Virus record (IMG/VR): IMGVR_UViG_3300022602_000028
From: a virus
Length of the DNA: 64,000 nt
Direction: 5' to 3' (one strand)
Positions within the stretch are counted from its first letter, which is position 1. Every line of letters begins with the position of its first letter. The notes under the pieces were generated by a model. That model ran no database searches, was not told where the DNA came from, and worked only from the letters and a program-made list of their open reading frames with translations. Shown here piece after piece: positions 21,988-59,704 of the stretch. The position numbers and the translations under genes are program-made.

Positions 21988-23432
21988 TATAAATCTGCCC
22001 TAGGTTTAAGTGCTTGCGATAAACTTTGACGTTGGTCATCTCTGGTGTTATACATAGTAACTACCCAAGTGCCTGCAAATGAAATTGTTTGTTGAGTATT
22101 GTTAATTAACGGTAATGTAATTCGAACATTATTACTAGCTATTCCAGTAACCGGATTAACATATCGATACGAACTTATCATATTAGGATATTCTGCAATG
22201 GAGTATTCCATTGTGTAAGTATCTAACTTTAGTACAATATAATTGCTAGTTGTGTATGCTATTCTAGTATTAACTACACTATCACCAACTGCTAAAATTA
22301 CCTGGTCGCTGGCTATAGCATTGTTGTAAGTATAGTTATTGTTATTAATAAATCCAGTTTTGAGTGTAGATCTTGTATCGTTGTTAGTCATGGTCATTCT
22401 GACAGAATCTTCCATCTTAACCCATCGCACTCCGTCAAATTTAAAAAGTCTATTAGGCATAAAATCAGTTCTTAAAAAGAAATCATCAGTAGCAGGAGAG
22501 CTAGGAAATTGTATACCAAAGCCAAATTCGTAACCATTAACCGGAAATCCATCGCCTAGTAGATAACCACTATAGCCAGTTCTTTGTGGAATAGCATTAA
22601 CACTTGATGAATTAGTGTTTGCATTAATATTGTCAGCGGTAAGATCTGTTTCGTCTGCATTTCTTAATAATGGTTTACCTGTGTCGGGATCTACTGCTAG
22701 TGTATAAAATTGTCTAGTTTCATAACCACTTAACGGAGCATCTGCTTCTGCTTGTGCAACAACTTGGGCATTTATTGCTAGCTCTTGTGTTCGTGTACTT
22801 AACAAATCTCGGAGACTAGTATTTGCTACCGGATCGCCGTTAGCATCAACTGCTGGTTGATTTAATATGTCTGCAAACTGTTGACTGTCTACTACTTTCT
22901 TACATTTTAGTCTGTACAAATGTGGATACCACGTTACGCTAAATCCTTCGGTTGCACGTCCTACATCTTCGATAACATAATACCTGGGTAATGTAAAATC
23001 AAAATCATTAAGCGCAAAATCATCTCGCAAATGTGGCAATTCAAACACATCTCCGCTCATAGGTTTGCGACCAATAGTATTAATAATATCATTAATGTGT
23101 ACAGTCATATAAATTGTATCACTATCAATGAATAATCCAAATTGACTCAAATTAAAATCAATATTTGCCACGTTATAATGACCGCGTAATCTGTAAATTT
23201 CAGTATCGTATTTTCTATCCCGATTTTCTAAGAATAATAAATCTTGGATATTTGTAGGATTCAAAGCACCGTAAACTGGCTGATCCGCAGTTCCTGAAGT
23301 TTTTAGTGCTGGACCCATGTATTTGTGCAAATACACATCAGTGCCTCCAACTTGGAACATTTCGCTGGCTTGACGATCTATAAACTTATAGTCGTTACCC
23401 TTTTCTGGTTTGTATAAAGATAAACGTGGCAT
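21987..23432 (-). CDS. gp14: Neck/head-closure protein (T4 gp14-like)
   Basis: Start moved to ATG 23432 (MPRLSLYKP), 5 nt after TAAATA; LFLENRDRKYD, SQFGLF, GRKPMSGDVFELP motifs. Confidence 0.65.
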   Translation of the reverse strand: MPRLSLYKPEKGNDYKFIDRQASEMFQVGGTDVYLHKYMGPALKTSGTADQPVYGALNPTNIQDLLFLENRDRKYDTEIYRLRGHYNVANIDFNLSQFGLFIDSDTIYMTVHINDIINTIGRKPMSGDVFELPHLRDDFALNDFDFTLPRYYVIEDVGRATEGFSVTWYPHLYRLKCKKVVDSQQFADILNQPAVDANGDPVANTSLRDLLSTRTQELAINAQVVAQAEADAPLSGYETRQFYTLAVDPDTGKPLLRNADETDLTADNINANTNSSSVNAIPQRTGYSGYLLGDGFPVNGYEFGFGIQFPSSPATDDFFLRTDFMPNRLFKFDGVRWVKMEDSVRMTMTNNDTRSTLKTGFINNNNYTYNNAIASDQVILAVGDSVVNTRIAYTTSNYIVLKLDTYTMEYSIAEYPNMISSYRYVNPVTGIASNNVRITLPLINNTQQTISFAGTWVVTMYNTRDDQRQSLSQALKPRADL

Positions 23433-23436
23433 AGTG

Positions 23437-23458
23437 ATATTTATCGTATGATAAATAT
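23437..23458. promoter_or_regulatory. Back-to-back divergent late promoters
   Basis: Perfect inverted repeat ATATTTATC-GTAT-GATAAATAT gives GATAAATAT on both strands between gp14 (-) and gp13 (+). Confidence 0.7.
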
Positions 23459-23473
23459 GTATGGAGAACTTAT

Positions 23474-24259
23474 ATGGACGATCTACCATCATCAACGCAA
23501 TCTGATTCCACAATCGAACGAAATAAAGTGTTTAGCTATGTAAAACAGATGCTAGGCGACGGTATGATTGAAGTAGAATTAGACCCAGTACATTACGAAA
23601 CTGCCCTTGACCGTGCATTAAACCGTTATCGTCAAAAAAGTCCTAATGCTGTTGAAGAAAGTTATAGTTTTCTTGAACTTATTCAGGATCAAAATGAGTA
23701 CAGATTACCAGATGAAATTATTACAGTACGTCAAGTATTTCGCCGTGCGATTGGTAGCCGCACCGGCATGGGCGCTGGTGGTACTTTGTTTGAACCCTTT
23801 AACTTGGCATATACAAATACATATTTGATGTCAGGAAGTATGATGGGCGGTTTAGCTACATACGAACTATTCAGCGGATATCAAAAACTTGTAGGCCGTA
23901 TGTTTGGTAGTTATATAGAATTTCTCTGGAAACCTACCACGCATATATTAAATATTTTACAACGCCCATTTAGTCAAGGCGAACAAATTTTAATTCAAAG
24001 TTATAATTTTAGACCAGATTGGGTATTGTTACAAGATATCTATGCCAAACAATGGCTTAAAGATTATACTCTAGCAGTTTGTAAACAAATGTTAGGCGAA
24101 GCACGTAGCAAGTTTGGAGCCATTGCAGGCCCAGGCTCTCCAATTACTTTAAATGGTACTGCATTGTTAGGAGCCGCTAAAGAAGAATTAGTTGCTTTAG
24201 ATAAAGAATTGGACACATACGTAGCTGGCGGATCTGGCTATTACTTTGTATTAGGTTAA
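23474..24259 (+). CDS. gp13: Neck protein (T4 gp13-like)
   Basis: LGDGMIEVELD; QWLKDYTLAVCKQMLGEARSKF...GPG..ITLNG. Confidence 0.8.
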   Translation: MDDLPSSTQSDSTIERNKVFSYVKQMLGDGMIEVELDPVHYETALDRALNRYRQKSPNAVEESYSFLELIQDQNEYRLPDEIITVRQVFRRAIGSRTGMGAGGTLFEPFNLAYTNTYLMSGSMMGGLATYELFSGYQKLVGRMFGSYIEFLWKPTTHILNILQRPFSQGEQILIQSYNFRPDWVLLQDIYAKQWLKDYTLAVCKQMLGEARSKFGAIAGPGSPITLNGTALLGAAKEELVALDKELDTYVAGGSGYYFVLG

Positions 24260-24267
24260 GAAATTTC

Positions 24268-24953: not shown

Positions 24954-25263
24954 GATCCCCCTGTTTCCATCTAATTCCTTCTTTATGCAATACCCTGGCA
25001 CAATTAGCGCATACTGTTTTTAAATTTGCCGGTCGACAATTATTAAGATCTCCATCTACATGAAATGGAGCAAATATTTCTTTATGCGGACTCTTGTATC
25101 CGCATTTATCGCATGTATTTTTAACAACATAACCGGCACGTTTCCACCTAGGTTCTTTAACTCCTCGGGAACATAGCCCGCACTGACTTCTATAAAAAGC
25201 CTGTCCGTTTTTATAATAGTTAATCGATAACGGTGCTCTACCGCAAGAACATAGTGGTCTCAT
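24937..25263 (-). CDS. Zn-binding, degenerate HNH-like protein
   Basis: Four CxxC-type pairs; FHVDGDLNNCRPANLKTVCANC, with Ala at the position of the final His. Confidence 0.6.
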   Translation of the reverse strand: MRPLCSCGRAPLSINYYKNGQAFYRSQCGLCSRGVKEPRWKRAGYVVKNTCDKCGYKSPHKEIFAPFHVDGDLNNCRPANLKTVCANCARVLHKEGIRWKQGDLIPDL

Positions 25264-25367
25264 ATTCTATTTAAGCCTTTTTACGACCTTTTCATAGCTT
25301 ATAACTGAGCCAAAAAAGCAAAATGCCATAAATACATTAACAACATGTATTCATGGAGATCATATAA

Positions 25368-28300
25368 ATGGCAACATTAAATTCACCAGGCGTAAGCGTA
25401 ACAGTAGTAGATGAATCATTCTACACCCCAGCGGCAGCTGGCACTGTACCGTTATTCATTGTAGCGTCTGAACAAGATAAACAAAACGGTGCTGGAACAG
25501 GAATTGCACCTGGAACCCAACAAGCAAACGCTGGAACAGTATATTTACTAACTAGCCAAAAAGATTTATCGGATACATTTGGTATTCCGACATTTAAAAC
25601 AGATGCACAAAACAATCCTATTCACGCTGGTGAGCAAAATGAATATGGTTTGGAAGCCGCATACAGTTTTTTAGGTGTAAGCAATCGTGCGTATGTAGTA
25701 CGTGCTGATGTAGATTTAGATAGCCTAACAGGCACAACAACTGCACCATACGGCGAGCCATCCGATGGAACATATTGGTTTGATACAACAGATACTAAAT
25801 TCGGTGTTTTTCAATGGAATGCCGCTCCAGCTACAACAACTGGTGGTCAAACATTTACTGAACAACAAAGTTTGAATAATTTGGCTGTAATTACAGACAC
25901 TACTAAAGTAGATACAGCAGGCTCACTTGGACTTGCCGGAGCTCCATTACCAAGTATTGGACAGTTAGGCGATTACGTAATCGTTGCAACAACTACATTA
26001 AACAAATTATGGTTTAAAAAATATGCAAACTCAACACCTGGCGGTACATGGGTTGAAGTAGGATCTCCAGCATGGGCCGCAAGTTGGCCTGCGGCAACTG
26101 GTACGATTGCTACTGGTTCTATTACTTTACTAACTGGCGATGCGTTAGTAATCAATGGTACTAGTATTACTAGTGTAACAACATTAACTGCTTTAATTAC
26201 TGCAATTAATTCTAATAGTACATTAACTGCGGCGGGAATTACAGCTTCAAACATTAATGGCTATTTAAATTTATTTACTAACGGTACAAACACAAATAAT
26301 GCTTCTTATACTGGTGCTATTACACTTAGCGGATCTACAGTAGCTAAAGTTGGATTAAACTCAACAATTTATTTGGCTCCTCAATTACAATTAAGTCCAC
26401 ATACTAGTGTTCCGTTATTTAAAATTACTGATAACCAATCAACTAATAACGGTGCTCCAACTGGTTCAGTTTGGATCAAGACTACTAGTGCAGATTACGG
26501 TGCAGATTGGATTATCAAAAAATATTCTGCTAGTACAAACACATGGTCTAGCCTAACTACTCAACTAGCCTTAAGTGGAAGCCATGCAATTTATGCCTAC
26601 GACCCAACAGGTGGTGGAATTAATTTAGCTATTGGTCAAGTTTACGTAAAATACAACGATGACGAAGGCGTTCCAGCATTAGGTCATTTTAAAATTTATA
26701 TTCGTAGCGCAACTGGTCCAAATACTATTACAAGTAGTTCTATATCATCAAGTACATTTACTGCTGGTGTAAACACATTTTCAGTTAGAGAAAGTGTTGT
26801 AGGCCAAGCGGCATTAGCTACACCTTATATAGTTACACCAACTGCGGCAAGCGGTACAGGTACAGTTGCTACACTAACTGTACCCACTATGTCTACAGCA
26901 TACCTTGTAGGGCAGTATATTACAGTAAGTGGCATGGTTCCAGCTGGATATAATGGTACTTATGTAGTAACAGCATCTACTACAACTAGTGTTAGCTATG
27001 CGAACACTACTACAGGTTCATTAACAACTATTGGACAAATTAATAGCGGAGTGCTTGTTTCATTCACAGCAACTGGCGCAACTACTGATGCGGCATTAAT
27101 GTCGGCTGCTTTTAACGCCGCAATGCCAGCAGGTACAAATTTAATTGCTAGTGTTTCTAATTCAAATCAACTAGTAATTACACACGGATTAGGAGGTGAG
27201 ATTAGATTCAATGATGGTGCTAATACACCAATTGGAAAAATCTTTACTCCACTAAGTAATGGTGTAGGCACAACTAATTTCTATGCTAATCCAAATGCTA
27301 ATTTAACAACACAGTATGTTGCTAGTTTATGGAGTCCAGTGAACAGTGCAGGTACAGCAGTAGCTCCTGCTAGTGCAAGTGCTCCTACAACAACTCCAGT
27401 TAATGGTACAATATGGTACAATAATTACATCGATGATGTAGATGTTTTAGTTAATAATGGATCAAGTTGGGTAGGTTATTTAACAGTTGCTGGTAAAGCA
27501 GTAAATCAATTGTATGGTTCAAGCACAACAGATCCAAACGGCCCAATTGTTAGTGCCAGTCAGCCAACAGTACAAAGCGACGGCACTCCATTAGCCCACG
27601 GTGATTTGTGGATTGATACAAGTGATTTAGAAAATTATCCATTAATTTACAAGTATAACTACTTGACTAAGAAATGGTTATTGATTAGTAATGCAGATCA
27701 TACTAGTGAAAATGGTGTTATATTTGCAGATGCTCGTTGGAGTACAGATGGCGGTGTTGCTAATGGCAATACACCTAGTGCTATCGTAGATTTGTTAAAC
27801 AGCAGTTTTGTAGATTTTGACGCACCAGATCCTACACTATATCCAAAAGGAATGTTATTGTGGAATCTACGTCGTAGCGGATTTAATGTATTAGAATATG
27901 TAACAAATTATGTAGATGTTAATGCACGTAATCCACGTCAGTCTAATTCTCCAATGACTACTTATTATCCAAATCGTTGGGTAACACATGCCGCTAATCA
28001 AGTTAACGGTTCCGGAGCATTTGGTCGCAAAGCAGTTCGCGAAGTAGTATTGGCTGCGTTGAACGCAACAATCCAAGGTAATCAACAAATTCGTGACGAA
28101 GAATCACGTGTGTTTAACTTGATTGCTTGCCCTGGTTATCCAGAAACAATTAGCGAACTAGTAGGATTAAATGCAGACCGTGGTTATACAGCATTTGTAG
28201 TCGGCGATAGCCCTGCACGTTTAACACCAGATGCTACAAGTTTAAGCAACTGGGGTAACAACGTAAACAATGCAGTAGTAGATGGCGACCAAGGTTTAAT

Positions 28301-29649: not shown

Positions 29650-29674
29650 AAAAGCCCGCTTAGGCGGGTTTTTT
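29650..29674 (+). terminator. Intrinsic terminator
   Basis: AAAAGCCCGC-TTAG-GCGGGTTTTTT. Confidence 0.85.
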
Positions 29675-29710
29675 ATTGAATAGCCATTAACTACCCATAT
29701 TAAGATCACG

Positions 29711-29718
29711 TATAAATA
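29711..29718 (+). promoter_or_regulatory. Late promoter TATAAATA, 5 nt before ATG 29724
   Basis: TATAAATA-ATAGT-ATG with no SD. Confidence 0.7.
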
Positions 29719-29723
29719 ATAGT

Positions 29724-30710
29724 ATGGCATTTACACCCTCAAATCAATTAGTTGCAGATTCGTTCGTTAATCTACGAGACTGGGAACACGCGGCTCGACT
29801 ATTCGTAGATGATCAGTTTAGACTGGCACCTAAATGGAATTTTGGATTTCATGTAGCTTTTAATATTAACCCTGCATGTTGTAAAAATACTTCATTATTA
29901 CAAGCATTTGGTCAAGAAGTAAACATGCTAGTTAAAAGTATAGATTTACCTAAGTTTACGGTAACTGTTGACCAAGTTAATCAATACAACAGAAAAAAAC
30001 AAATACAAACACATCATAAATTTAATGATGTTGTGGTTAAATTCCATGATGATAATATGAGTTTAATCAATCAAATATGGCAAAATTATTATAGTTACTA
30101 TTATGCAGATAGTACCAGTGCTCAACAAACCGGAGCCTACAATAGAAACGCAACTAGAAGTAGTGATTTTATTACTACTCCTTACGGGTTTGATAATGGC
30201 TCTACTGTACCATTCTTTAACTATATAAAGATTTATCAGATGGCTCGTCACGAGTGGATTAGCTATACTTTAGTAAACCCTATAATTAAATCTTGGGATC
30301 ATCAAAATCTTGCTTATGCTGGTAATACTCCTCATGATTTTGCAATGACATTATCATTTGAAGCAGTAACTTATGACATGGGGTTAGTTACCGATGGAAC
30401 TGTTGAAGGATTTGCGCAAACACATTACGATCTTACTCCGGGCCCGTTACAAGGCCAATCTACAGGAACTAGTGTAAGCCCGTCCTTTGTTCAAACAACT
30501 ACACCATTAGATCCAACATCGGTATTAGCTAATAATGCCAACACTGTAAATAACTATCAAAATCCATTAATGCCGGCTTTGCCAACAGTAAATGCAACAA
30601 TTCCTTTTGCCGGTAGTCCTTCAAACCCAAGCGGATTACAAGGCGTAGCATTTCCGACTAGTAACACAGCAACTAATACAACTGTAGCAACTCCAGTTAA
30701 TTTAGTCTAA
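29724..30710 (+). CDS. Tail-tube-like baseplate/tube initiator protein
   Basis: VKSIDLPKFTV...NQYNRK...VVVKFHDDN pattern of the gp19/gp54-like superfamily. Confidence 0.6.
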   Translation: MAFTPSNQLVADSFVNLRDWEHAARLFVDDQFRLAPKWNFGFHVAFNINPACCKNTSLLQAFGQEVNMLVKSIDLPKFTVTVDQVNQYNRKKQIQTHHKFNDVVVKFHDDNMSLINQIWQNYYSYYYADSTSAQQTGAYNRNATRSSDFITTPYGFDNGSTVPFFNYIKIYQMARHEWISYTLVNPIIKSWDHQNLAYAGNTPHDFAMTLSFEAVTYDMGLVTDGTVEGFAQTHYDLTPGPLQGQSTGTSVSPSFVQTTTPLDPTSVLANNANTVNNYQNPLMPALPTVNATIPFAGSPSNPSGLQGVAFPTSNTATNTTVATPVNLV

Positions 30711-31516: not shown

Positions 31517-31532
31517 AGCTGATAAGTAATGT

Positions 31533-32015
31533 ATGACTAAAAAATTAGAAGAAATTTTAAATTTACCTACAAGCAAAAAAATTGTTAAGCAGGAAGAAAA
31601 AGAAGCTAAGAAAGCTGAAATCGCTCAGCCATTTATTCGCGACATGAGTGAATTTGATAAAATATCAGCCGCACTACCCCAAGTTAAAGGCTTGGGTGAT
31701 ATTGCCGACGGTGAGCTAGATGATTTAGCTTTGAAAGCTACAAATGCCTACGAAGACATTATGGATTTAGGCATGAACGTTGAAGCCAGATATAGTGCTA
31801 GATTGTTTGAAGTAGCCGCCGGTATGCTAGGGCATGCAATATCCGCTAAAAGTGCTAAACTAGATAAAAAACTTAAAATGATAGATCTTCAGTTGAAAAA
31901 GCAAAAATTAGACAATGACGCCAACGGAGTCGACGATAGTGTTACTATTCAAGGCGATGGCGTTATTATTTCAGATCGCAATAGTTTGTTAGAAAAACTA
32001 AAGCAAATGAAATAA
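31533..32015 (+). CDS. Helical protein, candidate small terminase subunit
   Basis: 160 aa, coiled-coil character, upstream of the large terminase; TAAGTA 4 nt before ATG. Confidence 0.4.
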   Translation: MTKKLEEILNLPTSKKIVKQEEKEAKKAEIAQPFIRDMSEFDKISAALPQVKGLGDIADGELDDLALKATNAYEDIMDLGMNVEARYSARLFEVAAGMLGHAISAKSAKLDKKLKMIDLQLKKQKLDNDANGVDDSVTIQGDGVIISDRNSLLEKLKQMK

Positions 32016-32035
32016 ATACAGTACTGGGACCTAAT

Positions 32036-32692
32036 ATGAAATCATTTAAAGAATACTTAACAGAAAGCAAAAAAGTTTACGAATTTAAGATCAAAATTGC
32101 GGGCGATTGCCCTAAGGATTCTGTTGCTAAAATTAAAGAAGCATTAGCTTGCTATAAAGTTGAATCTTGTTCGGCTGGAAAAAGTACTCCTATTACAGAA
32201 AAACAAGTTGATTTTCCAAAATTAGAAAATGTTGGAGCGACAGTTTTTGACATAGTTGTCGGTTATCCAACAACTAACGCACAGATCCGTGAAGCAGTTG
32301 CTAAAAAATTAAAAATTGCAATGGCAGAAATTCGTGTACGTAGTAGCTATGAAGAGGAAGAACTTGCACTTAATCATCAATATGATGAAAAATCAGGTAA
32401 AGCATATTTAGGCACAGATTATGAAGCAAGCGACCATCAAGATTTAGTAGGCGAGCAACATAAGTTAAGTTTCCTAAAAGATATTCATTCAATGAGTCGA
32501 GAATTAGAAGAAGTAACTGGCACTAATGATCAATTATTTCCTAAGCCTGCAAAAGGAAAAACACAAGATATGCAATCTGTTGTAACTGAGAAATCAGGAA
32601 TGACTAGCATAATTGGAACCAAACAAAATAAATTAACACCTTATGCCAATAGTGTTAAAAACAGCCTAAACGTAGCGGCTAAAGGAAAATAA
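32036..32692 (+). CDS. Hypothetical late protein, probable internal head protein
   Basis: MKSFKEYLTES N-terminus (LxE site); TAAATA upstream. Confidence 0.45.
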   Translation: MKSFKEYLTESKKVYEFKIKIAGDCPKDSVAKIKEALACYKVESCSAGKSTPITEKQVDFPKLENVGATVFDIVVGYPTTNAQIREAVAKKLKIAMAEIRVRSSYEEEELALNHQYDEKSGKAYLGTDYEASDHQDLVGEQHKLSFLKDIHSMSRELEEVTGTNDQLFPKPAKGKTQDMQSVVTEKSGMTSIIGTKQNKLTPYANSVKNSLNVAAKGK

Positions 32693-33538: not shown

Positions 33539-33566
33539 AAATAGGCTCTTCGGAGCCTATTTTTTT
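33539..33566 (+). terminator. Intrinsic terminator with UUCG loop
   Basis: AAATAGGCTC-TTCG-GAGCCTATTTTTTT. Confidence 0.9.
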
Positions 33567-33580
33567 CAGTAAATAACAAT

Positions 33581-35176: not shown

Positions 35177-35186
35177 TAAATATAAC

Positions 35187-42099: not shown

Positions 42100-42108
42100 T
42101 ACTGAATA

Positions 42109-48105: not shown

Positions 48106-48459
48106 CTGTACACTTTTACGTTTTACACGTTTCATACTCATATTCATAACATTAACCACAGGGCCTAGAATTATACGAGTATCCTTGCTATTAAATGTTT
48201 TAATGGCATATGAAAACGGATATATTTGTTGCCTACAAAATATATTAATAGGAAATTGACGATTACTTTCCCACCACCAAGTTTCGCCTATTTCTAAAAA
48301 TACAGCTTTTTCTTCGGCAGTTTTAATGGCATTTAAATCATAGAAGCTAGTAACAAACTGATCCTGATTGATTATGATGCCTACATATTCATCATCACCG
48401 TAGTTTAATACGCTAATAAAGGGTAAATTTTGTTCAATGTTGTCTCTTAGTTTTGCCAT
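48085..48459 (-). CDS. Hypothetical protein
   Basis: 124 aa with a basic C-terminus (KRVKRKSVQLVRK). Confidence 0.65.
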   Translation of the reverse strand: MAKLRDNIEQNLPFISVLNYGDDEYVGIIINQDQFVTSFYDLNAIKTAEEKAVFLEIGETWWWESNRQFPINIFCRQQIYPFSYAIKTFNSKDTRIILGPVVNVMNMSMKRVKRKSVQLVRKVR

Positions 48460-48483
48460 AAATATAGTAAAGGATTTGTGCTA

Positions 48484-49584
48484 ATGCAAAAAATTCAAAG
48501 TTATTTATATCCAAACCGTATCATTGTTACCGCTGATTTGGCTGGATTTTCTACGGAGTATAAAAACGTGTATCAGAGAAATATAAAAATATATAAAGGC
48601 ATTAATAACGTCATCGAATTTGATATTAAGAATGCTGATCAAAAACGTATTGATCTTACTACATTATCTCTAATGAGATTAAATGTTATGGACATCAGTG
48701 GCAACGCATTGCCAAATAGTCCATATACCGTAACTCCACTATCTATTTTAACGGCTACTGGGACTGGAGCAACTGTGTATGCTACTACCGGACAATCCAC
48801 CACAACAACTATTACATTACCAACTGCAAATGTAACCGGCGCATTTACAACAAACAGCACACTAACTGTTTCAGCTGGAATTATCGGAACTGTTACTATT
48901 TCGGCAGTAACTCAAGATATCGATTCGGCAACAACTAGTCTTACTGTTAATTTTGCAAATCAAACAATTGCCGGCGCTACTAGTGTATCTCTATCTAGCA
49001 CAACAGAACCGTTAAAAGGTTTAGCCAGTGCTACTATACCTGCCGCTGATACCTCAGGCCTCGACGTTCAATCATTGCGTTATAGCATTACCGCTGTTGA
49101 TTCAAATAGCAATCCATTGCTAATGTATGTGGATAGCAGATTTGGAGCAGTGGGTACTATTGATCTTGCAGGATCTGCAGTTCCAATAACTCGTCCAGCA
49201 CAAGTACTAACTGAATTTACCCAAGATATTAATTATATGGGAACTGTAGTTAATCGTAGCAGTGCTATACCTTGCAAATTTTACGAAGCCGTTCCAACTG
49301 CTACATTAAATTTTTCAATCAACGTAACCGGGTTCCAAGGCCAAATATATTTGGAAGGAACTACAGATATGACTATTGCTGTCAATTCTTTCCTAAATGC
49401 TAGTCAATTATATTCAAATACAATTAGCACTCCAACGACAACTACAGTAACTTGGACAAATGTTCCGGTTAATGATTTTAATTATTTTAGAGTAAGTTGG
49501 ATCAATAGTAGTGTCTACAGTATTACTCCAACTAATCTAAACGGATCTATTGGAACGGTTAATAAGATAACCGTTAGCCATTGA
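48484..49584 (+). CDS. Thr-rich late protein, probably structural
   Basis: TAAATA (48459-48464) plus AAGGA SD favour ATG 48484 (MQKIQSYLYPN); beta/Thr-rich. Confidence 0.55.
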   Translation: MQKIQSYLYPNRIIVTADLAGFSTEYKNVYQRNIKIYKGINNVIEFDIKNADQKRIDLTTLSLMRLNVMDISGNALPNSPYTVTPLSILTATGTGATVYATTGQSTTTTITLPTANVTGAFTTNSTLTVSAGIIGTVTISAVTQDIDSATTSLTVNFANQTIAGATSVSLSSTTEPLKGLASATIPAADTSGLDVQSLRYSITAVDSNSNPLLMYVDSRFGAVGTIDLAGSAVPITRPAQVLTEFTQDINYMGTVVNRSSAIPCKFYEAVPTATLNFSINVTGFQGQIYLEGTTDMTIAVNSFLNASQLYSNTISTPTTTTVTWTNVPVNDFNYFRVSWINSSVYSITPTNLNGSIGTVNKITVSH

Positions 49585-49609
49585 TTTAATTCAGGCAGTC
49601 TGTTATAAT
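49581..49609 (+). promoter_or_regulatory. sigma70-type promoter for the primase operon
   Basis: TTGATT-17nt-TATAAT. Confidence 0.7.
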
Positions 49610-49614
49610 AAGGC

Positions 49615-50586
49615 ATGAGCCTAATTGCGGACACCCTCTTAACATATTTGCCCGGAAAGCGTAAACACACTCCAAGCGGTTGGATTGGGTTTAATGCCGT
49701 GTGTTGCGATGATAAACGCCAACGTGGCGGATTTATTGTTAACGGCGGAGATGCTGTTAGTTATCATTGCTTTAATTGTGGATTCAAATGTAGTTGGCAA
49801 CCTGGCAGACATATCAGTCAAAAGATGAATAAGTTCATGCGGGATTTAAATATTCCCGATGACATCATTGCACAGTTAAGATTAGAAGCACTTAGACTAG
49901 ATGACAATAACACTACAGAAATTCGAAACATAATTCCAAAGTTTGATGTTCGTGCATTGCCCATGGACAGTCAACTGATTACAGACTTATTGTCCGATCC
50001 TCCAGAGAAACTTATACCTGTATTAGAATACATGGTCAATAGAAAAATCTATCCTGAAGATTTTCCTTTCTATTGGACACCCAAAGTTGGATTCAGCAAT
50101 AGACTTATTATTCCATTTTTGTTTAATAATGAAATTGTAGGGTGGACCGCTAGGACTACAGGAGATGCTACACCCAAGTATTTGAGTGAACAACAACCAG
50201 GTTATGTTTTTAATTTAGATAATCAAAAAGATAATCGTGAATTCGTAATTGTTAGCGAAGGTCCGTTTGATGCGCTAAGTATTGATGGCTGTGCATTACT
50301 CGGAGCAGAGATTAAAGACAGCCAAAACTGGTTGTTAAAACAATTAGGCAAAGAGCTTGTCTTAGTTCCTGATAGAGATCACGAAGGTCCTAAAACAGTA
50401 GAGCAAGCAATTGAGTTAGGGTGGAGTGTTAGCATGCCCGCATGGCCTAGTGGTGTTAAAGATATAAATGATGCAATAATTAAGATAGGTCGTCTTGCTA
50501 CACTATGGTTAATTAGAGATGCAACAGAATCTAACGAATTAAAAATTCGTTTAAAAATGAAAAATTGGTTTAAGGATATACAATAA
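49615..50586 (+). CDS. DNA primase (Zn ribbon plus TOPRIM; gp61/DnaG-like)
   Basis: VCCDDK...YHCFNCGF; IVSEGPFDALS; LVPDRD; KDIND. Confidence 0.9.
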   Translation: MSLIADTLLTYLPGKRKHTPSGWIGFNAVCCDDKRQRGGFIVNGGDAVSYHCFNCGFKCSWQPGRHISQKMNKFMRDLNIPDDIIAQLRLEALRLDDNNTTEIRNIIPKFDVRALPMDSQLITDLLSDPPEKLIPVLEYMVNRKIYPEDFPFYWTPKVGFSNRLIIPFLFNNEIVGWTARTTGDATPKYLSEQQPGYVFNLDNQKDNREFVIVSEGPFDALSIDGCALLGAEIKDSQNWLLKQLGKELVLVPDRDHEGPKTVEQAIELGWSVSMPAWPSGVKDINDAIIKIGRLATLWLIRDATESNELKIRLKMKNWFKDIQ

Positions 50587-51122: not shown

Positions 51123-52063
51123 TACTTTGGGGAATAAACGCTCTTAATCACGGTTCTAGTCTCGCCGTATTCAAAGAGGGTAAACTAGTATCGCAGACTA
51201 CTAGTACAGCTGACATCTTATCAAATGATCAAACTGTAAATGCGTTAAACTATCATGGCGCACCAGATCGTATCTTTTGGTATGAACGTCCGTGGGTTAA
51301 GAAAGCAAGACAACTCTACGCAGGACAATATAAAACTGCATTAGACATGTCTACATTACCTAAACGACATCTAACTCAATTTAAATATGCAAAAGTATCT
51401 TATACTCCTCATCATGCTAGTCACGCTGCCGCTGGCTATTATACAAGTCCATTTAATCATTGCGCGATTGTTGTGCTCGATGCGATCGGAGAATTTGAAT
51501 GTGCTACCATATGGGAAGGGCACCACGGTGAAATGAAAAAAGTGTGGAGTCGTAGTTATCCACATAGTTTGGGATTATTCTATAGTGCATTTACGCAACT
51601 AGTAGGACTTACTCCGATTAAAGATGAATACTTATTGCAAAAGATGGCAGAACAAGGAGACAAGTGGCGCTATTTTAAAGAAGTTAATAGTTACATAAAC
51701 GGCACAGTTAATTTGAATTATAATTTTCACAGAGGTGTGTTAAACTGGCCGTATCCTATTAATAATTTACAAGATCAGTGTGATATAGCGGCCGCAGTAC
51801 AAGATGCATTTGAAGTGCAAATTGGGTTGGTAACGAGCTTGGCAAAAGAATTAACAGGTGCAGACTGTTTGGTTTACATGGGCGGGTGTGCCATGAATAG
51901 CCAGGCAAATAAACGGTATGTTGAACCTATGTTTAAGTATCGTTGGAGCCTTCCTAATCCGGGGGATCCAAGCAGTAGTATAGGTGCAGTACTATATCAT
52001 ACCAAACAGAGAGTATGGGATTACAAGTGGGATCCTGTCAAACACATTGAAATTAAAGTATAA
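51119..52063 (+). CDS. Carbamoyltransferase N-terminal (Kae1-like) domain only
   Basis: HHASHAAAGYY, LDAIGE, SLGLFYS, GGCAMN, PGDPSSSIGA; no GPRALGNRS C-domain. Confidence 0.85.
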   Translation: MILWGINALNHGSSLAVFKEGKLVSQTTSTADILSNDQTVNALNYHGAPDRIFWYERPWVKKARQLYAGQYKTALDMSTLPKRHLTQFKYAKVSYTPHHASHAAAGYYTSPFNHCAIVVLDAIGEFECATIWEGHHGEMKKVWSRSYPHSLGLFYSAFTQLVGLTPIKDEYLLQKMAEQGDKWRYFKEVNSYINGTVNLNYNFHRGVLNWPYPINNLQDQCDIAAAVQDAFEVQIGLVTSLAKELTGADCLVYMGGCAMNSQANKRYVEPMFKYRWSLPNPGDPSSSIGAVLYHTKQRVWDYKWDPVKHIEIKV

Positions 52064-52080
52064 AGATAATATAATAACAC

Positions 52081-53502
52081 ATGGCACAAAATATAAATTA
52101 TGGATATGAAGTACAGAAATTGTACTTGGAAATGATGCTGAGTGACGCAGAAACTTTTGTGCGTTGCCAAAGCATTTTTGATCACACATTGTTTGATCGC
52201 AAATTACAAGACTCTGCTGAATTTATCAACAAGTATGTAGAAGAGTATAGTGTACTACCTACATTTGACATTGTAAACGCGTCAACTAACAGTAATCTAA
52301 AGACACCCGAGGGCGTAAAAGAAGCCAACTACGATTGGGTGTTAAATGATTTTGAAACTTTTATTAGACACAAAGGACTCGAGCGAGCAATCTTAGAATC
52401 AGCAGACTTGTTGGAAAAAGGCGAGTATGGTCCAGTAGAAGAAAAGATTAAAAAAGCAGTACAAGTGGGCTTACAACGTGATATGGGCACTGATTATTTT
52501 GAAGACCCTAGAGCACGTCTTGCACGTATTAAAGACAAGAACGGACAAATATCGACAGGTTGGAAAAGCATTGATGATAAACTATATGGAGGTTTTAATC
52601 GTGGTGAGCTTAATATTTGGGCTGGTGGCTCAGGCGCTGGCAAGAGTCTTTTCTTGGCTAATCTTGGGGTCAACTATGCTCTTGCTGGGCTTAATGTATT
52701 ATATCTCACATTAGAGTTGAGTGAGGATTTGGTCTGTATGCGTATTGATGCAATGACCACTGGAATCCCTACAAGAGAGATTTTTAAGAACTTAGATGAC
52801 GTTGAAATGAAGGTCAAAGTTATTGGTAAAAAGTCGGGAAAATTGCAGGTAAAATACATGCCATCGGGTAAGACTGCCAACGACATTCGTGCGTATATGA
52901 AAGAGTATGAAGTCAAAATGGGACACAAGATCGATGTGTTGCTAGTTGACTACATGGACTTGATTATGCCTTTGAGCAAACGTATCAGTGCTGAAAACTT
53001 GTTCGTCAAAGACAAGTATGTATCGGAAGAATTACGAAATTTAGCAGTGGAAAAGAACTGTGTGTTTGTAACTGCGGCACAGTTGAATCGTGGTGCTGTT
53101 GAAGAAGTTGAGTTTGATCACAGTCATATTTCAGGCGGACTATCCAAGATTCAAACAGCAGATAACGTGTTTGGTATCTTTACAAGTCGTGCTATGCGTG
53201 AGCGTGGACGTTATCAAATTCAGCTGATGAAAACACGTTCGAGTAGTGGTGTTGGTATGAAAATTGATTTGGAATTTAATATTGATACACTACGTATTTC
53301 AGACTTAGATGAACAAGATGGTTATGGATCAGGATCTGCTAGTGCCGGTAGCGTACTGTTAAACAGTATCAAACAAAGACAAACAGTAAATCCAACAACC
53401 GGTGAAATCGCCGACGGAGCTCCTGCACCTAAGATTCATGCTAAAGTAGAAAGTAGTAAACTAAGAGAATTATTAAATAATTTGCCAGGCGATGATATTT
53501 GA
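52081..53502 (+). CDS. gp41: Replicative helicase DnaB/gp41-like
   Basis: STGWKSIDDKLYGG, Walker A GGSGAGKS, LLVDYMD, TAAQLNR, QLMKTR. Confidence 0.93.
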   Translation: MAQNINYGYEVQKLYLEMMLSDAETFVRCQSIFDHTLFDRKLQDSAEFINKYVEEYSVLPTFDIVNASTNSNLKTPEGVKEANYDWVLNDFETFIRHKGLERAILESADLLEKGEYGPVEEKIKKAVQVGLQRDMGTDYFEDPRARLARIKDKNGQISTGWKSIDDKLYGGFNRGELNIWAGGSGAGKSLFLANLGVNYALAGLNVLYLTLELSEDLVCMRIDAMTTGIPTREIFKNLDDVEMKVKVIGKKSGKLQVKYMPSGKTANDIRAYMKEYEVKMGHKIDVLLVDYMDLIMPLSKRISAENLFVKDKYVSEELRNLAVEKNCVFVTAAQLNRGAVEEVEFDHSHISGGLSKIQTADNVFGIFTSRAMRERGRYQIQLMKTRSSSGVGMKIDLEFNIDTLRISDLDEQDGYGSGSASAGSVLLNSIKQRQTVNPTTGEIADGAPAPKIHAKVESSKLRELLNNLPGDDI

Positions 53503-55710: not shown

Positions 55711-56398
55711 GATGTTCTTGATATCTATGTTTTAATACAGTGTATATATCTTGTGCCCACTGCTTGTGAGCGGATTCCGGATAGTGTCCGTACTTTTGGC
55801 AAGGAGCATATTGGTCCATGTGATTAGTCCATAAACTTCCCCAGGGCATTAGGTTAGTCATGTGATCTATATCAACATGATATCTCTTGGGAAGCCCACT
55901 GAGGGGAAATGGTTCTATATGAAAGAAACAAAAATCGATATTGCGCAGTCTAAAAAATCCATTTAGTGTATGTTGGTTTATCATCCAAGTTAGTACAGTT
56001 TTAGGATCTCTACTTAGATGATTAACATAAGATTCTCTGACTTGTTTGTTTATATGGGGTTTGGTAATTTCGTAAGGATTTAATAAACTTTGCTCTTCGA
56101 CATTTTCAGGATTAATATAAACTACTCTATTCCATTTGGTCCATTGTACTATGCACAAGGTGTTCAAGTGCGGGGGAATTTTAGTCAAGGTATGATGCAC
56201 TAGTTCGTGATAAATGTTATCATTGCTGTTGCCATTAACAGCAAGATTATCCACACGCTTGACACCTAGTATTTGGCCCAAGTGAGCGGCCCAGCTGTGA
56301 TTAGGGTTTTCGGGATTATTAGTATCGCCGTCTATTATAGTTTCAGCACCAAACGTGTGACTACACCCGTTAACTAAAAGTATATCGTATTGTCTCAT
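55703..56398 (-). CDS. SGNH/GDSL hydrolase-like protein
   Basis: LVNGCSHTFG, NLAVNGNSND, IVQWT, YGHYPESAHKQWA. Confidence 0.7.
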   Translation of the reverse strand: MRQYDILLVNGCSHTFGAETIIDGDTNNPENPNHSWAAHLGQILGVKRVDNLAVNGNSNDNIYHELVHHTLTKIPPHLNTLCIVQWTKWNRVVYINPENVEEQSLLNPYEITKPHINKQVRESYVNHLSRDPKTVLTWMINQHTLNGFFRLRNIDFCFFHIEPFPLSGLPKRYHVDIDHMTNLMPWGSLWTNHMDQYAPCQKYGHYPESAHKQWAQDIYTVLKHRYQEHHA

Positions 56399-56402
56399 GG
56401 AA

Positions 56403-56449
56403 TATTTATAAATCGGTGTCGAACCAAAATTATTATTAGACTATAAATA
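56403..56449. promoter_or_regulatory. Divergent pair of exact TATAAATA late promoters
   Basis: Minus-strand TATAAATA at 56403-56410, 4 nt before ATG 56398; plus-strand TATAAATA at 56442-56449, 4 nt before ATG 56454. Confidence 0.75.
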
Positions 56450-56453
56450 TTTA

Positions 56454-56714
56454 ATGCCACAGCACATGCCACTATGGGATTATGCTCCTTGCTTGCACGA
56501 TTTCGATTATCTTGCAGATGTAGACTGGCCGCATCGGACATTGGAACAAATTGATTGGATTGATGGAATTGTGCAGATTGAACAGTGGCTACTACAATAT
56601 ACAGGGCCCAAATACAGTAGATGGACTTGGGCCACTGCTCGCGAAGTTTATCACGTTGGTGTAGCGTTTAAGTACGATCGACACCGCACTTTATTTTTAC
56701 TACACTGGACTTAG
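56454..56714 (+). CDS. Trp-rich hypothetical protein
   Basis: 86 aa directly after a late promoter. Confidence 0.6.
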   Translation: MPQHMPLWDYAPCLHDFDYLADVDWPHRTLEQIDWIDGIVQIEQWLLQYTGPKYSRWTWATAREVYHVGVAFKYDRHRTLFLLHWT

Positions 56715-57229
56715 GCAGCTGGGGTTGCTGTAGTATCCTTGTCTGCGGGTGTATCTGTTGTCGCTGTAGCATCAGGTGTATCTGTACTAGCGTCTGTACT
56801 AGCACCATCTAATGGCTTGTGTTCGCCATTAGGATGAATACCCTGATTGTGTGGAATATTCAAGTGTTGATTATCCAGTGGTGATATAATATCAGGAATA
56901 CGCTGGGCAATTTGATGCGGTTTAGCAGTATGCTGGAATGTATCACTGTGACGTTGGAACAAGTCCAAGTCGTCAGCTATGGCTAGGATAGCGTTCATGT
57001 CAGCTTCAATACCTTTACGGGTAAAATCAGCTTGGCAACTGTCAATCCATTCTTGACGAATTTCATCAGAATCTTTTTGATTGTGATGATGTAGATCTAC
57101 TTGACGTAGGTGCTTTTGGCATATATCTTGTAGGGCTGTAGTGTAAAAAGGCAAACTGTGTAGTCTACCTGGAAACTCAGCCACACGTTGATGGAATCGT
57201 GGTGTATCAATTGTTAAATGTGGATCCAT
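56711..57229 (-). CDS. Hypothetical protein
   Basis: 172 aa, AGGAG SD, low-complexity Thr/Asp tail. Confidence 0.6.
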   Translation of the reverse strand: MDPHLTIDTPRFHQRVAEFPGRLHSLPFYTTALQDICQKHLRQVDLHHHNQKDSDEIRQEWIDSCQADFTRKGIEADMNAILAIADDLDLFQRHSDTFQHTAKPHQIAQRIPDIISPLDNQHLNIPHNQGIHPNGEHKPLDGASTDASTDTPDATATTDTPADKDTTATPAA

Positions 57230-57319
57230 TAAAATCTATCTCCTTGGTAGCATAATATGTTATTATTTATGCCGTTAGTCTTGGAGTCGGGCATGATAAA
57301 TATTGTTTTAGGACACGAG

Positions 57320-58237
57320 ATGGCCATTTTTACCGCTAGTCAAGCTACCACAGCCGTTCAACAATTAGTCAGCACTACAGCGGCACAAGCCTATGCCAAT
57401 CTCATTGCGAACTATCAGGGCATATTTGATCTCATAGCAGAGCAAAGTCAACTGGGGCTAGTTTCCATCACTTGGAGCATGAGCCTTACGGACTACAACT
57501 TGATCCAGCCCGTACTGGTAGCCAATGGTTATACAGTCAGCACATGGCCCAGTGGGTTAACAGGCACTACACACAGCACGGTCACTATCAGTTGGCCTAG
57601 TGCGCCTGTTCAAGTGACTAGTTACCCGCAGATTAGTCAAATAACTCCCGCTAGTATATCGGGCACACAAAACGTATATTTCAGTGCAGTATTCCAAGCA
57701 GTGGGCGGAACTGCACCTTATACATATACTATTACGGGCACAATCCCCCAAGGATTAGCTTGGAGCACTTTGACCAATGTTAGTCAAATAACCCTATCAG
57801 GAACACCCACACAAGCAGGAGTAGAGTATTCAGGATTTACAATCACTGCTAGGGATGCTAATGCACAGACCGCGAGCCAAACAGTCAACTGGGAAATACT
57901 ATTAAGTACTCAGTTAACTGTAGCAACACAGTCAGCAGGAGCTGAATCTCTAGTATACACACCCAGCACGGGCGTATTGTCATTTACTCCGTATCTCTTG
58001 CCCACAAGTACAACAACGACCTTGGGCGGAGTTAAGATTGATAATACCAGTATAACAGTAAACGGACAGGGTCAAATACAGTATCAATTGCCCACAGCTA
58101 CAACAGCAACCTTGGGCGCAGTACGTGTGGACGGCACTAGTATACAAGCACAATCGGGCGTTATTAGTCTAGTACAGACTACTTTGGACACTAGAATACG
58201 TGCAATCAGCGCGGCGTTCAGTGTAGCTATGACCTAA
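57320..58237 (+). CDS. Structural protein with putative Ig (He_PIG-like) domain and fibre repeats
   Basis: Start moved to 57320 (TAAATA plus AGGA SD). GGTAPYTYTITGTIPQGL...LSGTPT; two LPTxTTxTLGxVx(I/V)D repeats. Confidence 0.65.
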   Translation: MAIFTASQATTAVQQLVSTTAAQAYANLIANYQGIFDLIAEQSQLGLVSITWSMSLTDYNLIQPVLVANGYTVSTWPSGLTGTTHSTVTISWPSAPVQVTSYPQISQITPASISGTQNVYFSAVFQAVGGTAPYTYTITGTIPQGLAWSTLTNVSQITLSGTPTQAGVEYSGFTITARDANAQTASQTVNWEILLSTQLTVATQSAGAESLVYTPSTGVLSFTPYLLPTSTTTTLGGVKIDNTSITVNGQGQIQYQLPTATTATLGAVRVDGTSIQAQSGVISLVQTTLDTRIRAISAAFSVAMT

Positions 58238-58331
58238 GCGAAGCGCCGGAAAAATTTTAAATTTGCGAAGCAGAGCGGAAAAAAATTACACTAGCTACGA
58301 AGTAGCAAGCGGTAAAACGCGAACTAGCGTT
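58238..58331 (+). other. Cluster of C(GAA)G mini-hairpins and A-tracts
   Basis: GC-GAA-GC 58238-58244; TGC-GAA-GCA 58264-58272; GCTAC-GAA-GTAGC 58294-58306; AACGC-GAACTA-GCGTT 58316-58331. Confidence 0.6.
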
Positions 58332-58359
58332 AGTGCGTAGGACGCCAGATAAATACACC

Positions 58360-59241
58360 ATGAGAGCACAAGAATTTATTATACGAGAAACAGAAGCGGC
58401 TAGACCCACGTACAAGCCCACCATGGACACAGCCAGCACCTTTAACATCAAAATACGTGACACCGGCCCGCAAGAAGGACAAATAGCCCCTGAAATCCTA
58501 GCACTAAAAGGCGTGGACAAGATGTATGATCTGGGCCGAGTTACTGGCCAATTTGTTAAAGATCTCATGAGAAAGTATCCACAAACTTTCCCAGGTGCAG
58601 ACAAGGAACCCAAACCAGGTGCTAAACCAGGCACAGCACAAGCGGGCGATTTGGATATCTACATGCGTGAAATCAGCTACAATAGACAAAACATACTCAA
58701 AGACCTAACCAGCAACAACGAATCAGCACACTTTGACAATAGATTCTTCTATCCTGGCAGACCTTTTGATGACGATGCACTACAGGGATTCCGTGGTGAT
58801 GAACGCACTGGCAGAGTGGAAAATACTGCCAAAAAGTTTGATCCCAAAGACATGACATTTTATCTACGTGCTTACAAATGGGCAGTGGACAATCAAGTGG
58901 TTCAGCCAGTGCCAGCTGAGCAATGGGCCATGATAGCACTAGTAGAAGGTCGTGATGACTTTGGTTTCAATGCTGGAAAATGGCAGGAAGAAGTTAGGAA
59001 GAATCCAGCCAGTGCCAACATGGATGAGAAAGTAAAAAGCATGGGTCTTATCAATACTGAACAGCGTTATTTTGTGTGCTTGCTAGCGGCCAAACAACGA
59101 CTACAGAAAGGTGGCATGCCGTTTTATCAAGCGTGGAATGGCGGTACACAAAACTTGGGACGTTATCAAGCACAACAACTGGCCATAAAAGATCCCCGCA
59201 ATGCGCCCCTATTGGCGTTTATACACAGCGTAATAGGTTAA
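58360..59241 (+). CDS. Late protein with possible lysozyme-like/transglycosylase C-terminal domain
   Basis: Start moved to 58360 (TAAATA-CACC-ATG). WAMIALVEGRDDFG and FYQAWNGG resemble SLT motifs I and III. Confidence 0.45.
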   Translation: MRAQEFIIRETEAARPTYKPTMDTASTFNIKIRDTGPQEGQIAPEILALKGVDKMYDLGRVTGQFVKDLMRKYPQTFPGADKEPKPGAKPGTAQAGDLDIYMREISYNRQNILKDLTSNNESAHFDNRFFYPGRPFDDDALQGFRGDERTGRVENTAKKFDPKDMTFYLRAYKWAVDNQVVQPVPAEQWAMIALVEGRDDFGFNAGKWQEEVRKNPASANMDEKVKSMGLINTEQRYFVCLLAAKQRLQKGGMPFYQAWNGGTQNLGRYQAQQLAIKDPRNAPLLAFIHSVIG

Positions 59242-59344
59242 GCCAACTGAGAAAAGGTTCTAGCCTAGATTAAATTTTCTAGCGCAAAAAAATTTTGACC
59301 AGTACTTATAGTTCTCATGGGGTTGTTTTTAGGGTAAATACTCG

Positions 59345-59704
59345 ATGCGTATATATGAAATAACCCAACAAGATCCAGTATTTGGCGATCCAACACTAAT
59401 GGCTACACTAGCACTTTACTTGCCAAAAGACACTATACATGCACTGTACATGCAGAGTCCTTATACTCCGGGCAGTGGGAATGAACGTTGGCGTGGCAAG
59501 TATGATCAGATTGTTGCTAGCGTAAAGCCAGAATTGTCTAAAGACGATCCAAATATCCCACAGGTTATTAGAACTATAGACCGACAGATACCTATAATAG
59601 GTTTGCCCGCATGGATTAAACATGCTGTAGAACAAGCTGATCGGATGTATAAAGATAATAAGGACTCTAGTGTAGAGAATCCTAATTGGGGCATAGTCAA
59701 GTAA
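59345..59704 (+). CDS. Hypothetical late protein
   Basis: TAAATA-CTCG-ATG; MRIYEIT N-terminus. Confidence 0.6.
   Translation: MRIYEITQQDPVFGDPTLMATLALYLPKDTIHALYMQSPYTPGSGNERWRGKYDQIVASVKPELSKDDPNIPQVIRTIDRQIPIIGLPAWIKHAVEQADRMYKDNKDSSVENPNWGIVK

Follow-up and report, generated by a model that had tools for sequence, protein, structure and literature searches.

T4-type late-promoter cores placed 4–5 nt before ATG suggest leaderless messages in a freshwater giant phage and its relatives

Across the 64,000-nt stretch of phage DNA analysed here (the window), the core of a putative gp55-type late promoter, and at a few genes a sigma70-type promoter, is fused to the start codon, an arrangement that probably yields leaderless mRNAs translated independently of a Shine-Dalgarno (SD) sequence. 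For about ten genes of this class, the AUG is most likely the very 5' end of the message. TAAATA, preferably as ATAAATA, would act as a -10-like core read by host RNA polymerase with a phage gp55-like sigma factor, and transcription would start on the A of the ATG where five nucleotides separate it from the box (N5), or one base earlier than the T4 rule where four do (N4). The resulting mRNAs would lack a 5' leader or carry one of 1–2 nt at most, and their translation would need no SD, the 5'-terminal AUG being recognised directly. Other late promoters of this phage would give 16–42-nt leaders with strong SDs, and fusion to start codons would extend to a few promoters of the sigma70 type (primase, helicase, g42109). 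We infer transcription start positions and translation mode from the motif, its spacing, conservation and insulation, and from the sigma gene found in relatives.

Late boxes at ten start codons

An earlier note on this DNA had listed ten SD-less starts of the form TAA(A/G)TA-N4-5-ATG, and re-reading the window confirmed all ten, seven at N4 and three at N5; the gap from box to ATG contains an SD in 0/10, being too short to fit one. The N5 sites precede a 481-aa virion protein (23430..23443, minus strand, box at 23443-23438, gene 23432), the tail tube protein (ATAAATA; 29713..29726, plus strand, gene 29724) and the large terminase, terL (TAAATA; 33570..33583, plus strand, gene 33581). The 481-aa protein, named gp14 in the earlier note, matches phrog_11591, a virion structural protein; its gene is the first of a minus-strand neck/sheath-stabiliser operon, and its promoter stands back to back with that of gene 23474 in a 41-nt intergenic gap. 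The N4 sites precede a 108-aa HNH-like gene divergent from the sheath gene (TAAATA; 25261..25273, minus strand, gene 25263; the HNH match is weak, E 2e-4), a TerS-like 160-aa gene with the variant box ATAAGTA (31523..31535, plus strand, gene 31533), and a 959-aa virion protein whose ATAAATA overlaps the terL stop (35177..35189, plus strand, gene 35187). The remaining four N4 sites belong to a 231-aa accessory gene (ATAAATA; 56396..56408, minus strand, gene 56398) and an 86-aa gene (ATAAATA; 56444..56456, plus strand, gene 56454), which form a divergent pair with a 55-nt gap, and to two genes with no assigned function: one of 293 aa (ATAAATA; 58350..58362, plus strand, gene 58360), within a 924-nt indel cassette (58332-59255), and one of 119 aa (TAAATA; 59335..59347, plus strand, gene 59345). 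The 231-aa protein, previously labelled SGNH, had no Pfam or PHROG match, and a Pfam search of the accessory proteins returned none. At eight of the ten sites, the ORF has no in-frame start upstream of this ATG, and no convincing SD-led start was found downstream, where the earlier note had considered that true starts might lie.

About half of the late boxes in the window drive SD-led genes instead, sheath included. The six genes previously described as having leaders with SDs (9268, 15520, 23474, 25368, 48484 and 57320) do carry TAAATA 16–33 nt upstream together with GGAG or AGGA. On the plus strand, ATAAATA is followed by a 16-nt leader with GGAGA at the gp13-like adaptor (23452..23476), 33 nt with GGAGA at the tail sheath (25329..25370), 25 nt with GGAGAG at a 1506-aa virion protein (15489..15522), 17 nt with GGGA at another virion protein (32013..32038), 26 nt with AAAGGA at gene 9268 (9236..9270), 19 nt with AAAGGA at gene 48484 (48459..48486) and 17 nt with AGGA at gene 57320 (57297..57322); on the minus strand, gene 57229 has a 34-nt leader with AAGGAGA (57227..57269). 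Leader and SD are present in 26/26 orthologues of the sheath gene, and box and SD in 49/56 orthologues of the virion gene at 32013..32038. The strong SDs attributed to early genes were likewise found, at 60–64 kb, as TATAAT followed by a AAGGAGCG leader.

Promoter signal and sigma factor

The distance between TAAATA and ATG is bimodal in the window, either N4–5 without an SD or N16–42 with one, and N8–15 is empty. When the 40 nt upstream of each of the 63 gene starts were shuffled 20,000 times, TAAATA-N4/5 was expected at a mean of 0.285 starts (maximum 4), against 9 observed. The histogram of box-to-start distances, proposed earlier as a check, peaks sharply at N4–5 both in the window and in relatives, four large ones of which (G001, G002, G004, G005) were compared; the empty zone recurs in G005, G004 and G002, slightly narrower or with 1–2 strays, and is weak in G001.

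TAAATA behaves as a DNA-level promoter signal, being placed before genes and depleted within them on both strands. Its 57 copies in the window make it the rarest of 15 permutations of its letters (71–144 copies for each of the others) and fall below a Markov expectation of 91–105, yet it opens an ORF at N4–5 nine times, against 0–4 for control permutations. Inside genes it occurs 15 times on the sense strand (35–51 expected) and 20 times on the antisense strand (43–61 expected), while ATAAATA occurs there 0 and 2 times on the two strands (7 and 17 expected), and 16–17 of the 18 ATAAATA copies in the window lie in front of genes. The core is invariant at gene fronts bar the one conserved TAAGTA variant, the bases upstream of it vary, and 14 of 19 TAAATA gene-front sites have the ATAAATA form. 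As a sigma70 hexamer, TAAATA was rejected, the -7 T or the -11 A being missing in every register.

The T4 late box lies at -13..-6 (TATAAATA) and is read by gp55 with gp33 and the gp45 clamp (PMC2988020). In the window, the late box precedes the tube, sheath, terL, adaptor and virion protein genes and has no -35 element, and the evidence supports TAAATA as a T4-type late-promoter core, a variant of the T4 8-mer. A gp55-like sigma, for which the earlier note had suggested a search, is present in relatives G001 and G002 (phmmer with T4 gp55, E 4e-9 and 4e-8; phrog_12791, E 7e-71), with none in the 64-kb window; T4 gp45 had no phmmer match in the window or the four relatives, where the clamp may be too divergent. 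Because the T4 box ends at -6, N5 would put the A of ATG at +1, as previously proposed. At N4 (7/10 window sites), the same rule gives the U of AUG as +1, and placing the start on or next to the A there means assuming a 1-nt shift in start-site choice.

The same layout occurs under sigma70-type promoters. DNA primase (gene 49615) is preceded by TTGATT-17-TATAAT, 5 nt and ATG with no usable SD (49581..49617, plus strand), and a DnaB-like helicase (gene 52081) by TTGAAA-17-TATAAT, 5 nt and ATG with no SD (52047..52083, plus strand). A 396-aa gene (g42109) follows a terminator and has TTGACC-17-TATACT, 9 nt and ATG (42071..42111, plus strand), with N6 in relatives; TATAAT-N6-ATG also forms a peak in relatives, at the canonical sigma70 +1, providing an internal calibration. 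The "leaderless late regulon" of the earlier note therefore stands as a layout at ten late-box genes and falls as a late-only one, because primase and helicase share it. Promoter-fused starts would instead be a general expression style of the phage clade, a likely part of the explanation we favour.

Conservation and insulation

The source phage is an uncultured freshwater giant phage, and the layout is common to dozens of its relatives. Megablast of the window against cultured phages gave no match, and a terL protein search returned metagenomic relatives only, with no cultured member. At six sites, the layout is kept in 83–100% of 11–67 distinct IMG/VR orthologue upstream sequences: in 9/11 for gene 23432 (N4–7), the other two having leader and SD, with a GTG start; in 26/26 for the HNH-like gene (N4 in 15, N5 in 11), where an SD-like AAGG at some orthologues sits upstream of the box; in 40/41 for the tail tube; in 47/51 for the TerS-like gene, whose variant G is conserved in relatives and whose exceptions include two relatives with TAAATA, a leader and AAAGGA; in 63/67 for terL (N5 in 51, N4 in 10, N6 in 2); and in 60/60 for gene 35187 (N4 in 56). 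Exceptions change to the box followed by a 16–25-nt leader with AAGGAG or TGGAGA, one with a GTG start, and orthologues of genes outside the class hardly ever have the box-ATG layout.

Over 260 distinct starts, which are not independent events because only six gene families supply them, spacing is N4 in 110, N5 in 144 and N6–8 in 6, while the spacer sequence itself varies. The start codon is ATG in 260/260 of these, with non-ATG codons in 10/555 at other starts, and a pyrimidine occupies -1 in 249/260 (96%) vs 59% at other genes, in keeping with the pyrimidine(-1)/purine(+1) preference known for transcription start sites. Independent orthologues are nearly lacking for the accessory region that holds the four sites at 56–59 kb: when the 231-aa accessory protein was used to search for its locus, a near-identical 6.3-kb contig was the only match and is the sole comparator for gene 56398, so that the one independent comparison is the gene 56454 orthologue in G004, which starts four codons later, again with TAAATA-N4-ATG.

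Terminators or divergent neighbours insulate several of these promoters. An intrinsic terminator with a 10-bp stem and T7 (33539..33566, plus strand) ends 3 nt before the terL box, and its hairpin is found in ~74/80 relatives with variable sequence; a hairpin with a T-run lies ~40 nt before the tail-tube promoter (29653..29675, given as plus-strand sequence, the hairpin being called on the minus strand). Divergent gene pairs are separated by 41, 55 and 104 nt, and three sites head divergent units. Gene 35187 starts 10 nt past the terL stop with no terminator between, and is therefore probably also on a longer transcript; gene 31533 lies 16 nt past the preceding gene.

Alternative explanations

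Chance occurrence in AT-rich intergenic DNA, or mis-called start codons, is an extremely improbable source of the layout and largely refuted. The 39% GC of the window fits it, as do raw box-ATG counts that in whole relatives are modestly above a reversed-pattern control, but such counts are informative only when limited to ORF-opening ATGs, and the ORF-aware histograms peak sharply at N4–5, with the window at 9 against ~0.29 expected. N-termini and protein lengths are also conserved among relatives, and T4, PA5oct and CBB, of similar or lower GC (measured for T4 and PA5oct), have no N4–5 peak. Slightly less remote, but still very unlikely, is that the motif acts in RNA, as a translational enhancer rich in A and U or as a RegA-like operator, on mRNAs starting further upstream. 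In favour of this are the AU-rich composition of the motif, its overlap with the ribosome footprint and the binding of T4 RegA to AU-rich sequences at start codons; against it, the same hexamer lies 16–42 nt upstream of SD-led late genes, its antisense depletion in genes is as strong as the sense one, it matches the T4 late-box core and relatives carry a sigma reading it, and the terminators 3 nt (terL) and ~40 nt (tail tube) before the box leave little or no room for another promoter, least at terL.

The promoters could also be real but minor or regulatory, most protein coming from read-through or polycistronic mRNAs by coupling or SD-independent internal initiation. The short distances upstream of genes 35187 and 31533, the former without a terminator, are what this would look like; we nevertheless consider it unlikely, given the terminators directly before terL and tail tube and the three divergent units with no same-strand gene upstream, and coupling leaves the 4–5 nt box-ATG distance over 260 distinct sequences unexplained. 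The adaptive ideas of the earlier note, that a leaderless class keeps late genes translated under SD shut-off or holds low-copy proteins down, seem improbable. A nuclease that targets SDs, such as T4 RegB, should in principle spare leaderless mRNAs, but escape from shut-off finds no support when about half of the late promoters drive strong-SD genes and replication genes under sigma70-type promoters have the same layout. Tuning of low-copy proteins fails on the high-copy tail tube, which is in the class while the sheath is SD-led, although T4-type tails need the two in equal numbers. Promoters fused to ATG and giving leaderless mRNAs, the likely core of the earlier reading once its late-only and adaptive parts are set aside, would predict what is seen: a fixed and conserved box-ATG unit, insulation, invariable ATG and a pyrimidine before it.

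Implications and comparison with known systems

More tentatively, and at slightly below an even chance, an abundant, very large and wholly uncultured clade of freshwater jumbo phages may express about 15–20% of its genes from true leaderless mRNAs, including those for the high-copy tail tube, both terminase subunits, primase and replicative helicase, using host sigma70-type and phage gp55-type promoters, with orthologues toggling in the course of evolution between a fused promoter and a leader with SD. If so, a widespread T4-related clade would start its late and some early messages on AUG, unlike T4, and gene callers and promoter finders geared to SDs would mis-annotate such genomes. The start-site rule of a gp55-type polymerase would be readable directly from sequence, and leaderless translation would support high-copy structural proteins in a canonical-SD host. 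This would mean either efficient translation of leaderless mRNAs by a host with canonical SDs and TTGACA/TATAAT promoters, or changes that the phage makes to the translation apparatus. Orthologue pairs with and without leaders offer natural material for comparing the two initiation modes.

In the literature searched, we found no prior description of leaderless mRNAs with T4-like or gp55 late promoters or in jumbo phages. Classical leaderless phage mRNAs, such as lambda cI from PRM and P2 gene V, have a 5'-terminal AUG and are SD-independent; these are single regulatory genes, whereas here 10–13 genes in 64 kb are concerned, high-copy structural ones included. T4 is, to our knowledge, the textbook model of late transcription, with late messages that all have leaders and ribosome-binding sites. 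Its late promoters resemble those described here in the TAAATA core, the lack of a -35 element, the position before virion and packaging genes and the gp55-like sigma found in relatives. Unlike in T4, the first two box positions (TA) are not conserved in this phage and about half of its boxes lie 4–5 nt from ATG, while in T4 the spacing peaks at N28 and every ATAAATA is at least 12 nt away from any ORF-opening ATG.

ATAAATA late promoters have been predicted in the RaK2-like jumbo phages CBB and GAP32 (PMC5259590); neither that paper nor the PA5oct paper mentions leaderless mRNAs. Like this phage, these three have ATAAATA before structural genes, and their terL is related to its terL at the nucleotide level; they encode a gp55-like sigma. 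CBB, however, has two ATAAATA-N4/5-ATG in 378 kb (control, 4), and PA5oct has 2/145 ATAAATA at N5, the bulk lying at N16–32, with no box abutting ATG at its terL and tube orthologues and an SD-led terL. A comparable layout is the experimentally validated leaderless expression from a "-10 region adjacent to ORFs" in Deinococcus-Thermus, with TANNNT at about 6–7 bp (PMC12340547, which also cites promoter work on Thermus phage phiYS40, Sevostyanova 2007). In both systems a -10 element lies at a specific spacing of a few bp from the start codon, there is no ribosome-binding site, and promoter-plus-RBS genes occur alongside. The Deinococcus-Thermus element belongs to the housekeeping sigma, whereas here, as far as sequence tells, it is mostly a phage-sigma late box at 4–5 bp, in a relative of T4 with canonical TTGACA/TATAAT promoters and AAGGAG SDs at its early genes.

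Source phage and gene content

The 64-kb window derives from an uncultured jumbo phage, for which no close cultured phage was found either by nucleotide search against cultured phages or by terL protein search; the terL region of PA5oct-like and RaK2-like phages is only ~66% identical to that of the window at the nucleotide level. Relatives are numerous in IMG/VR, and a set of 80 loci with terL 72-89% identical, one complete 372-kb genome with terminal repeats among them, was kept for comparison. Genes in the window include those for a tail sheath (25368), tail tube (29724), gp13-like adaptor (23474), sheath stabiliser (20518, minus strand), TerS-like protein (31533), terL (33581), gp32-like SSB (39018), UvsX (40272) and primase (49615), along with helicases. 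An early gene cluster occupies 60-64 kb on the minus strand, every gene having a TATAAT box and a AAGGAGCG leader. Within it (60039-63516), at least five early genes share nearly one module, composed of gTATAAT, ~20 nt, AAGGAGCGA and ATG (TTG in one case), which is a repeated early promoter/5'UTR cassette.

Late promoter boxes fused to start codons

An earlier note had listed ten genes in which TAA(A/G)TA precedes the ATG by 4 or 5 nt (N4 or N5) without a Shine-Dalgarno sequence (SD), namely those at 23432, 25263 and 56398 on the minus strand and at 29724, 31533, 33581, 35187, 56454, 58360 and 59345 on the plus strand, and all ten were confirmed in the sequence. TAAATA occurs 57 times on the two strands of the window, about half of the Markov expectation, and each of the remaining 14 permutations of these letters is commoner (71-144 copies). 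Nine copies are followed at 4 or 5 nt by an ATG opening a long ORF, and the tenth site carries TAAGTA. When the 40 nt upstream of each of 63 gene starts were shuffled, a mean of 0.285 and a maximum of 4 such TAAATA sites were obtained in 20,000 trials, against the nine observed. The ATG is the earliest possible in-frame start at 8/10 sites, and no convincing SD-led start was found downstream of the ten ATGs.

TAAATA is a DNA-level promoter signal. Nearly all ATAAATA copies (16-17/18) lie in front of genes, and inside genes TAAATA falls below expectation on the sense strand (15 vs 35-51 expected) and at least as strongly on the antisense strand (20 vs 43-61), with ATAAATA found 0 and 2 times, respectively, vs 7 and 17 expected. 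Antisense avoidance is not what an RNA motif would show. The spacing between box and ORF-opening ATG is bimodal, with nine sites at N4-5 without an SD, ten at N16-42 with one, and none in the window at N8-15; the shortest leaders (N16-17) are just long enough for a transcription start ~5 nt past the box plus an SD with its spacer. The same two-humped histogram is repeated in four large relatives, weakly in the most distant one, with N4+5 counts of 12, 9, 9 and 12. Divergent late-promoter boxes stand back to back at 23438-23457 (41-nt gap) and 56403-56449 (55-nt gap), the former pair having one fused arm (N5) and one SD-led arm (N16).

In T4, the late-promoter 8-mer spans -13 to -6 (PMC2988020), so that TAAATA-N5-ATG would set the A at +1 and N4 would set it at -1. 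N4, which accounts for 7/10 window sites, requires a 1-nt shift relative to the T4 rule. Searches with T4 gp55 recovered a single ORF from each of two relatives (E 4e-9 and 4e-8), the only genomes in which such a sigma was seen; the gp55-like ORF of one large relative (G002 106900-107745, minus strand) gives E 7e-71 against the PHROG annotated 'sigma factor for late transcription'. For CBB and GAP32, ATAAATA had already been put forward as the late promoter (PMC5259590).

Conservation and insulation of fused starts

Comparative evidence is the strongest line of support. Counting distinct orthologue upstream sequences that keep box-N4..8-ATG, in six gene families only, the layout is kept in 9/11 for a 481-aa virion protein (23432), 26/26 for the HNH-like gene (25263), 40/41 for the tail tube (29724), 47/51 for the TerS-like gene, always as the TAAGTA variant (31533), 63/67 for terL (33581) and 60/60 for a 959-aa virion protein (35187). 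Orthologues of the window's SD-led genes are essentially all SD-led too, with one exception among several hundred. Spacer length is fixed across relatives and spacer sequence variable. The few exceptions among fused genes keep the promoter, with TAAATA followed by a 16-25-nt leader containing AAGGAG or TGGAGA, one with GTG. The fused and leader-plus-SD architectures are alternatives that can replace one another, without intermediates. The start codon is ATG in all 260 distinct fused starts, and the -1 base is a pyrimidine in 96% of them vs 59% at other genes, a pattern in keeping with RNA polymerase generally preferring to begin at a purine preceded by a pyrimidine.

Several promoters carry further features. 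The TerS-like gene has ATAAGTA in place of ATAAATA (31523-31528), the G being conserved in 47/51 orthologues, which makes it a candidate for a late promoter kept weak on purpose. Two to three GAAAAGG(G)C-like words directly upstream of the late box of the HNH-like gene (25274-25300, minus strand), conserved in 26 relatives, may represent a regulator binding site. A near-perfect AT-rich palindrome (ATTAACTACGTAGTTAAT type) lies 8-10 nt before the tail-tube late box in many relatives (L002, L012, L033 and others); the window's own copy is degenerate.

Four of the ten sites lie in an accessory region, for which comparison was limited to a 99.8% identical contig and to one orthologue in the large relative G004, whose start is shifted by four codons yet still preceded by TAAATA-N4. 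A 924-nt cassette (58332-59255) carries a single gene, for a 293-aa protein, together with its ATAAATA-N4-ATG. That contig (L100), 99.8% identical elsewhere, has 24 nt in its place, so that promoter and gene form one unit that was recently gained or lost by indel.

Some fused genes are insulated from upstream transcription. The T-run of a strong terminator ends 3 nt before the terL box, and this hairpin is found in ~74/80 relatives with compensating sequence changes; a second terminator precedes the tail-tube promoter by ~40 nt. Divergent units begin with the genes at 23432 and 25263 (both minus strand) and with the pair 56398(-)/56454(+), the intergenic gaps being 41, 104 and 55 nt, and these genes cannot be supplied by an upstream same-strand message. 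The fusion of promoter and start codon is real and conserved, and leaderless expression is its most likely mechanism, a reading that we consider probable.

Sigma70-type fusions and possible roles

The fusions were originally described as a leaderless late regulon; the late-box fusions stand, but the restriction to late genes does not, as three genes are fused to sigma70-type promoters without an SD: primase (49581-49617, TTGATT-17-TATAAT-N5-ATG), a DnaB-like helicase (52047-52083, TTGAAA-17-TATAAT-N5-ATG) and a 396-aa protein gene at 42109 (42071-42111, TTGACC-17-TATACT-N9-ATG; N6 in relatives). A TATAAT-N6-ATG peak is seen in large relatives (7 in G005, 5 in G002) and is not present in T4 or PA5oct. 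Because N6 after TATAAT is exactly the canonical sigma70 +1, these sites calibrate the fused-start argument, and they suggest that leaderless messages would be translated from the start of infection.

Neither role previously put forward for the fused starts agrees with the gene content of the class. Tuning of low-copy virion proteins does not fit the tail tube, which is fused while the sheath is SD-led; T4-type tails need tube and sheath in equal numbers. Escape from a late shut-off of SD-led translation fares no better, since half of the late promoters stand before SD-led genes, making such a general shut-off unlikely.

Comparison with known systems

T4-type late promoters are already established, and no description of one combined with an abutting start codon was found in the searchable literature. 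None of the three cultured comparators (T4, PA5oct and CBB) has the fused class. ATAAATA never comes within less than 12 nt of an ORF-opening ATG in T4, where the spacing peaks at N28. In PA5oct, 2/145 ATAAATA copies are at N5, with the bulk at N16-32, and its terL and tube orthologues, unlike those of the window, have no box adjoining the ATG; CBB has two ATAAATA-N4/5-ATG in 378 kb vs four for the control. In Deinococcus-Thermus, -10 elements abutting start codons and giving rise to leaderless mRNAs are established (PMC12340547, which also cites earlier promoter work on the Thermus phage phiYS40).
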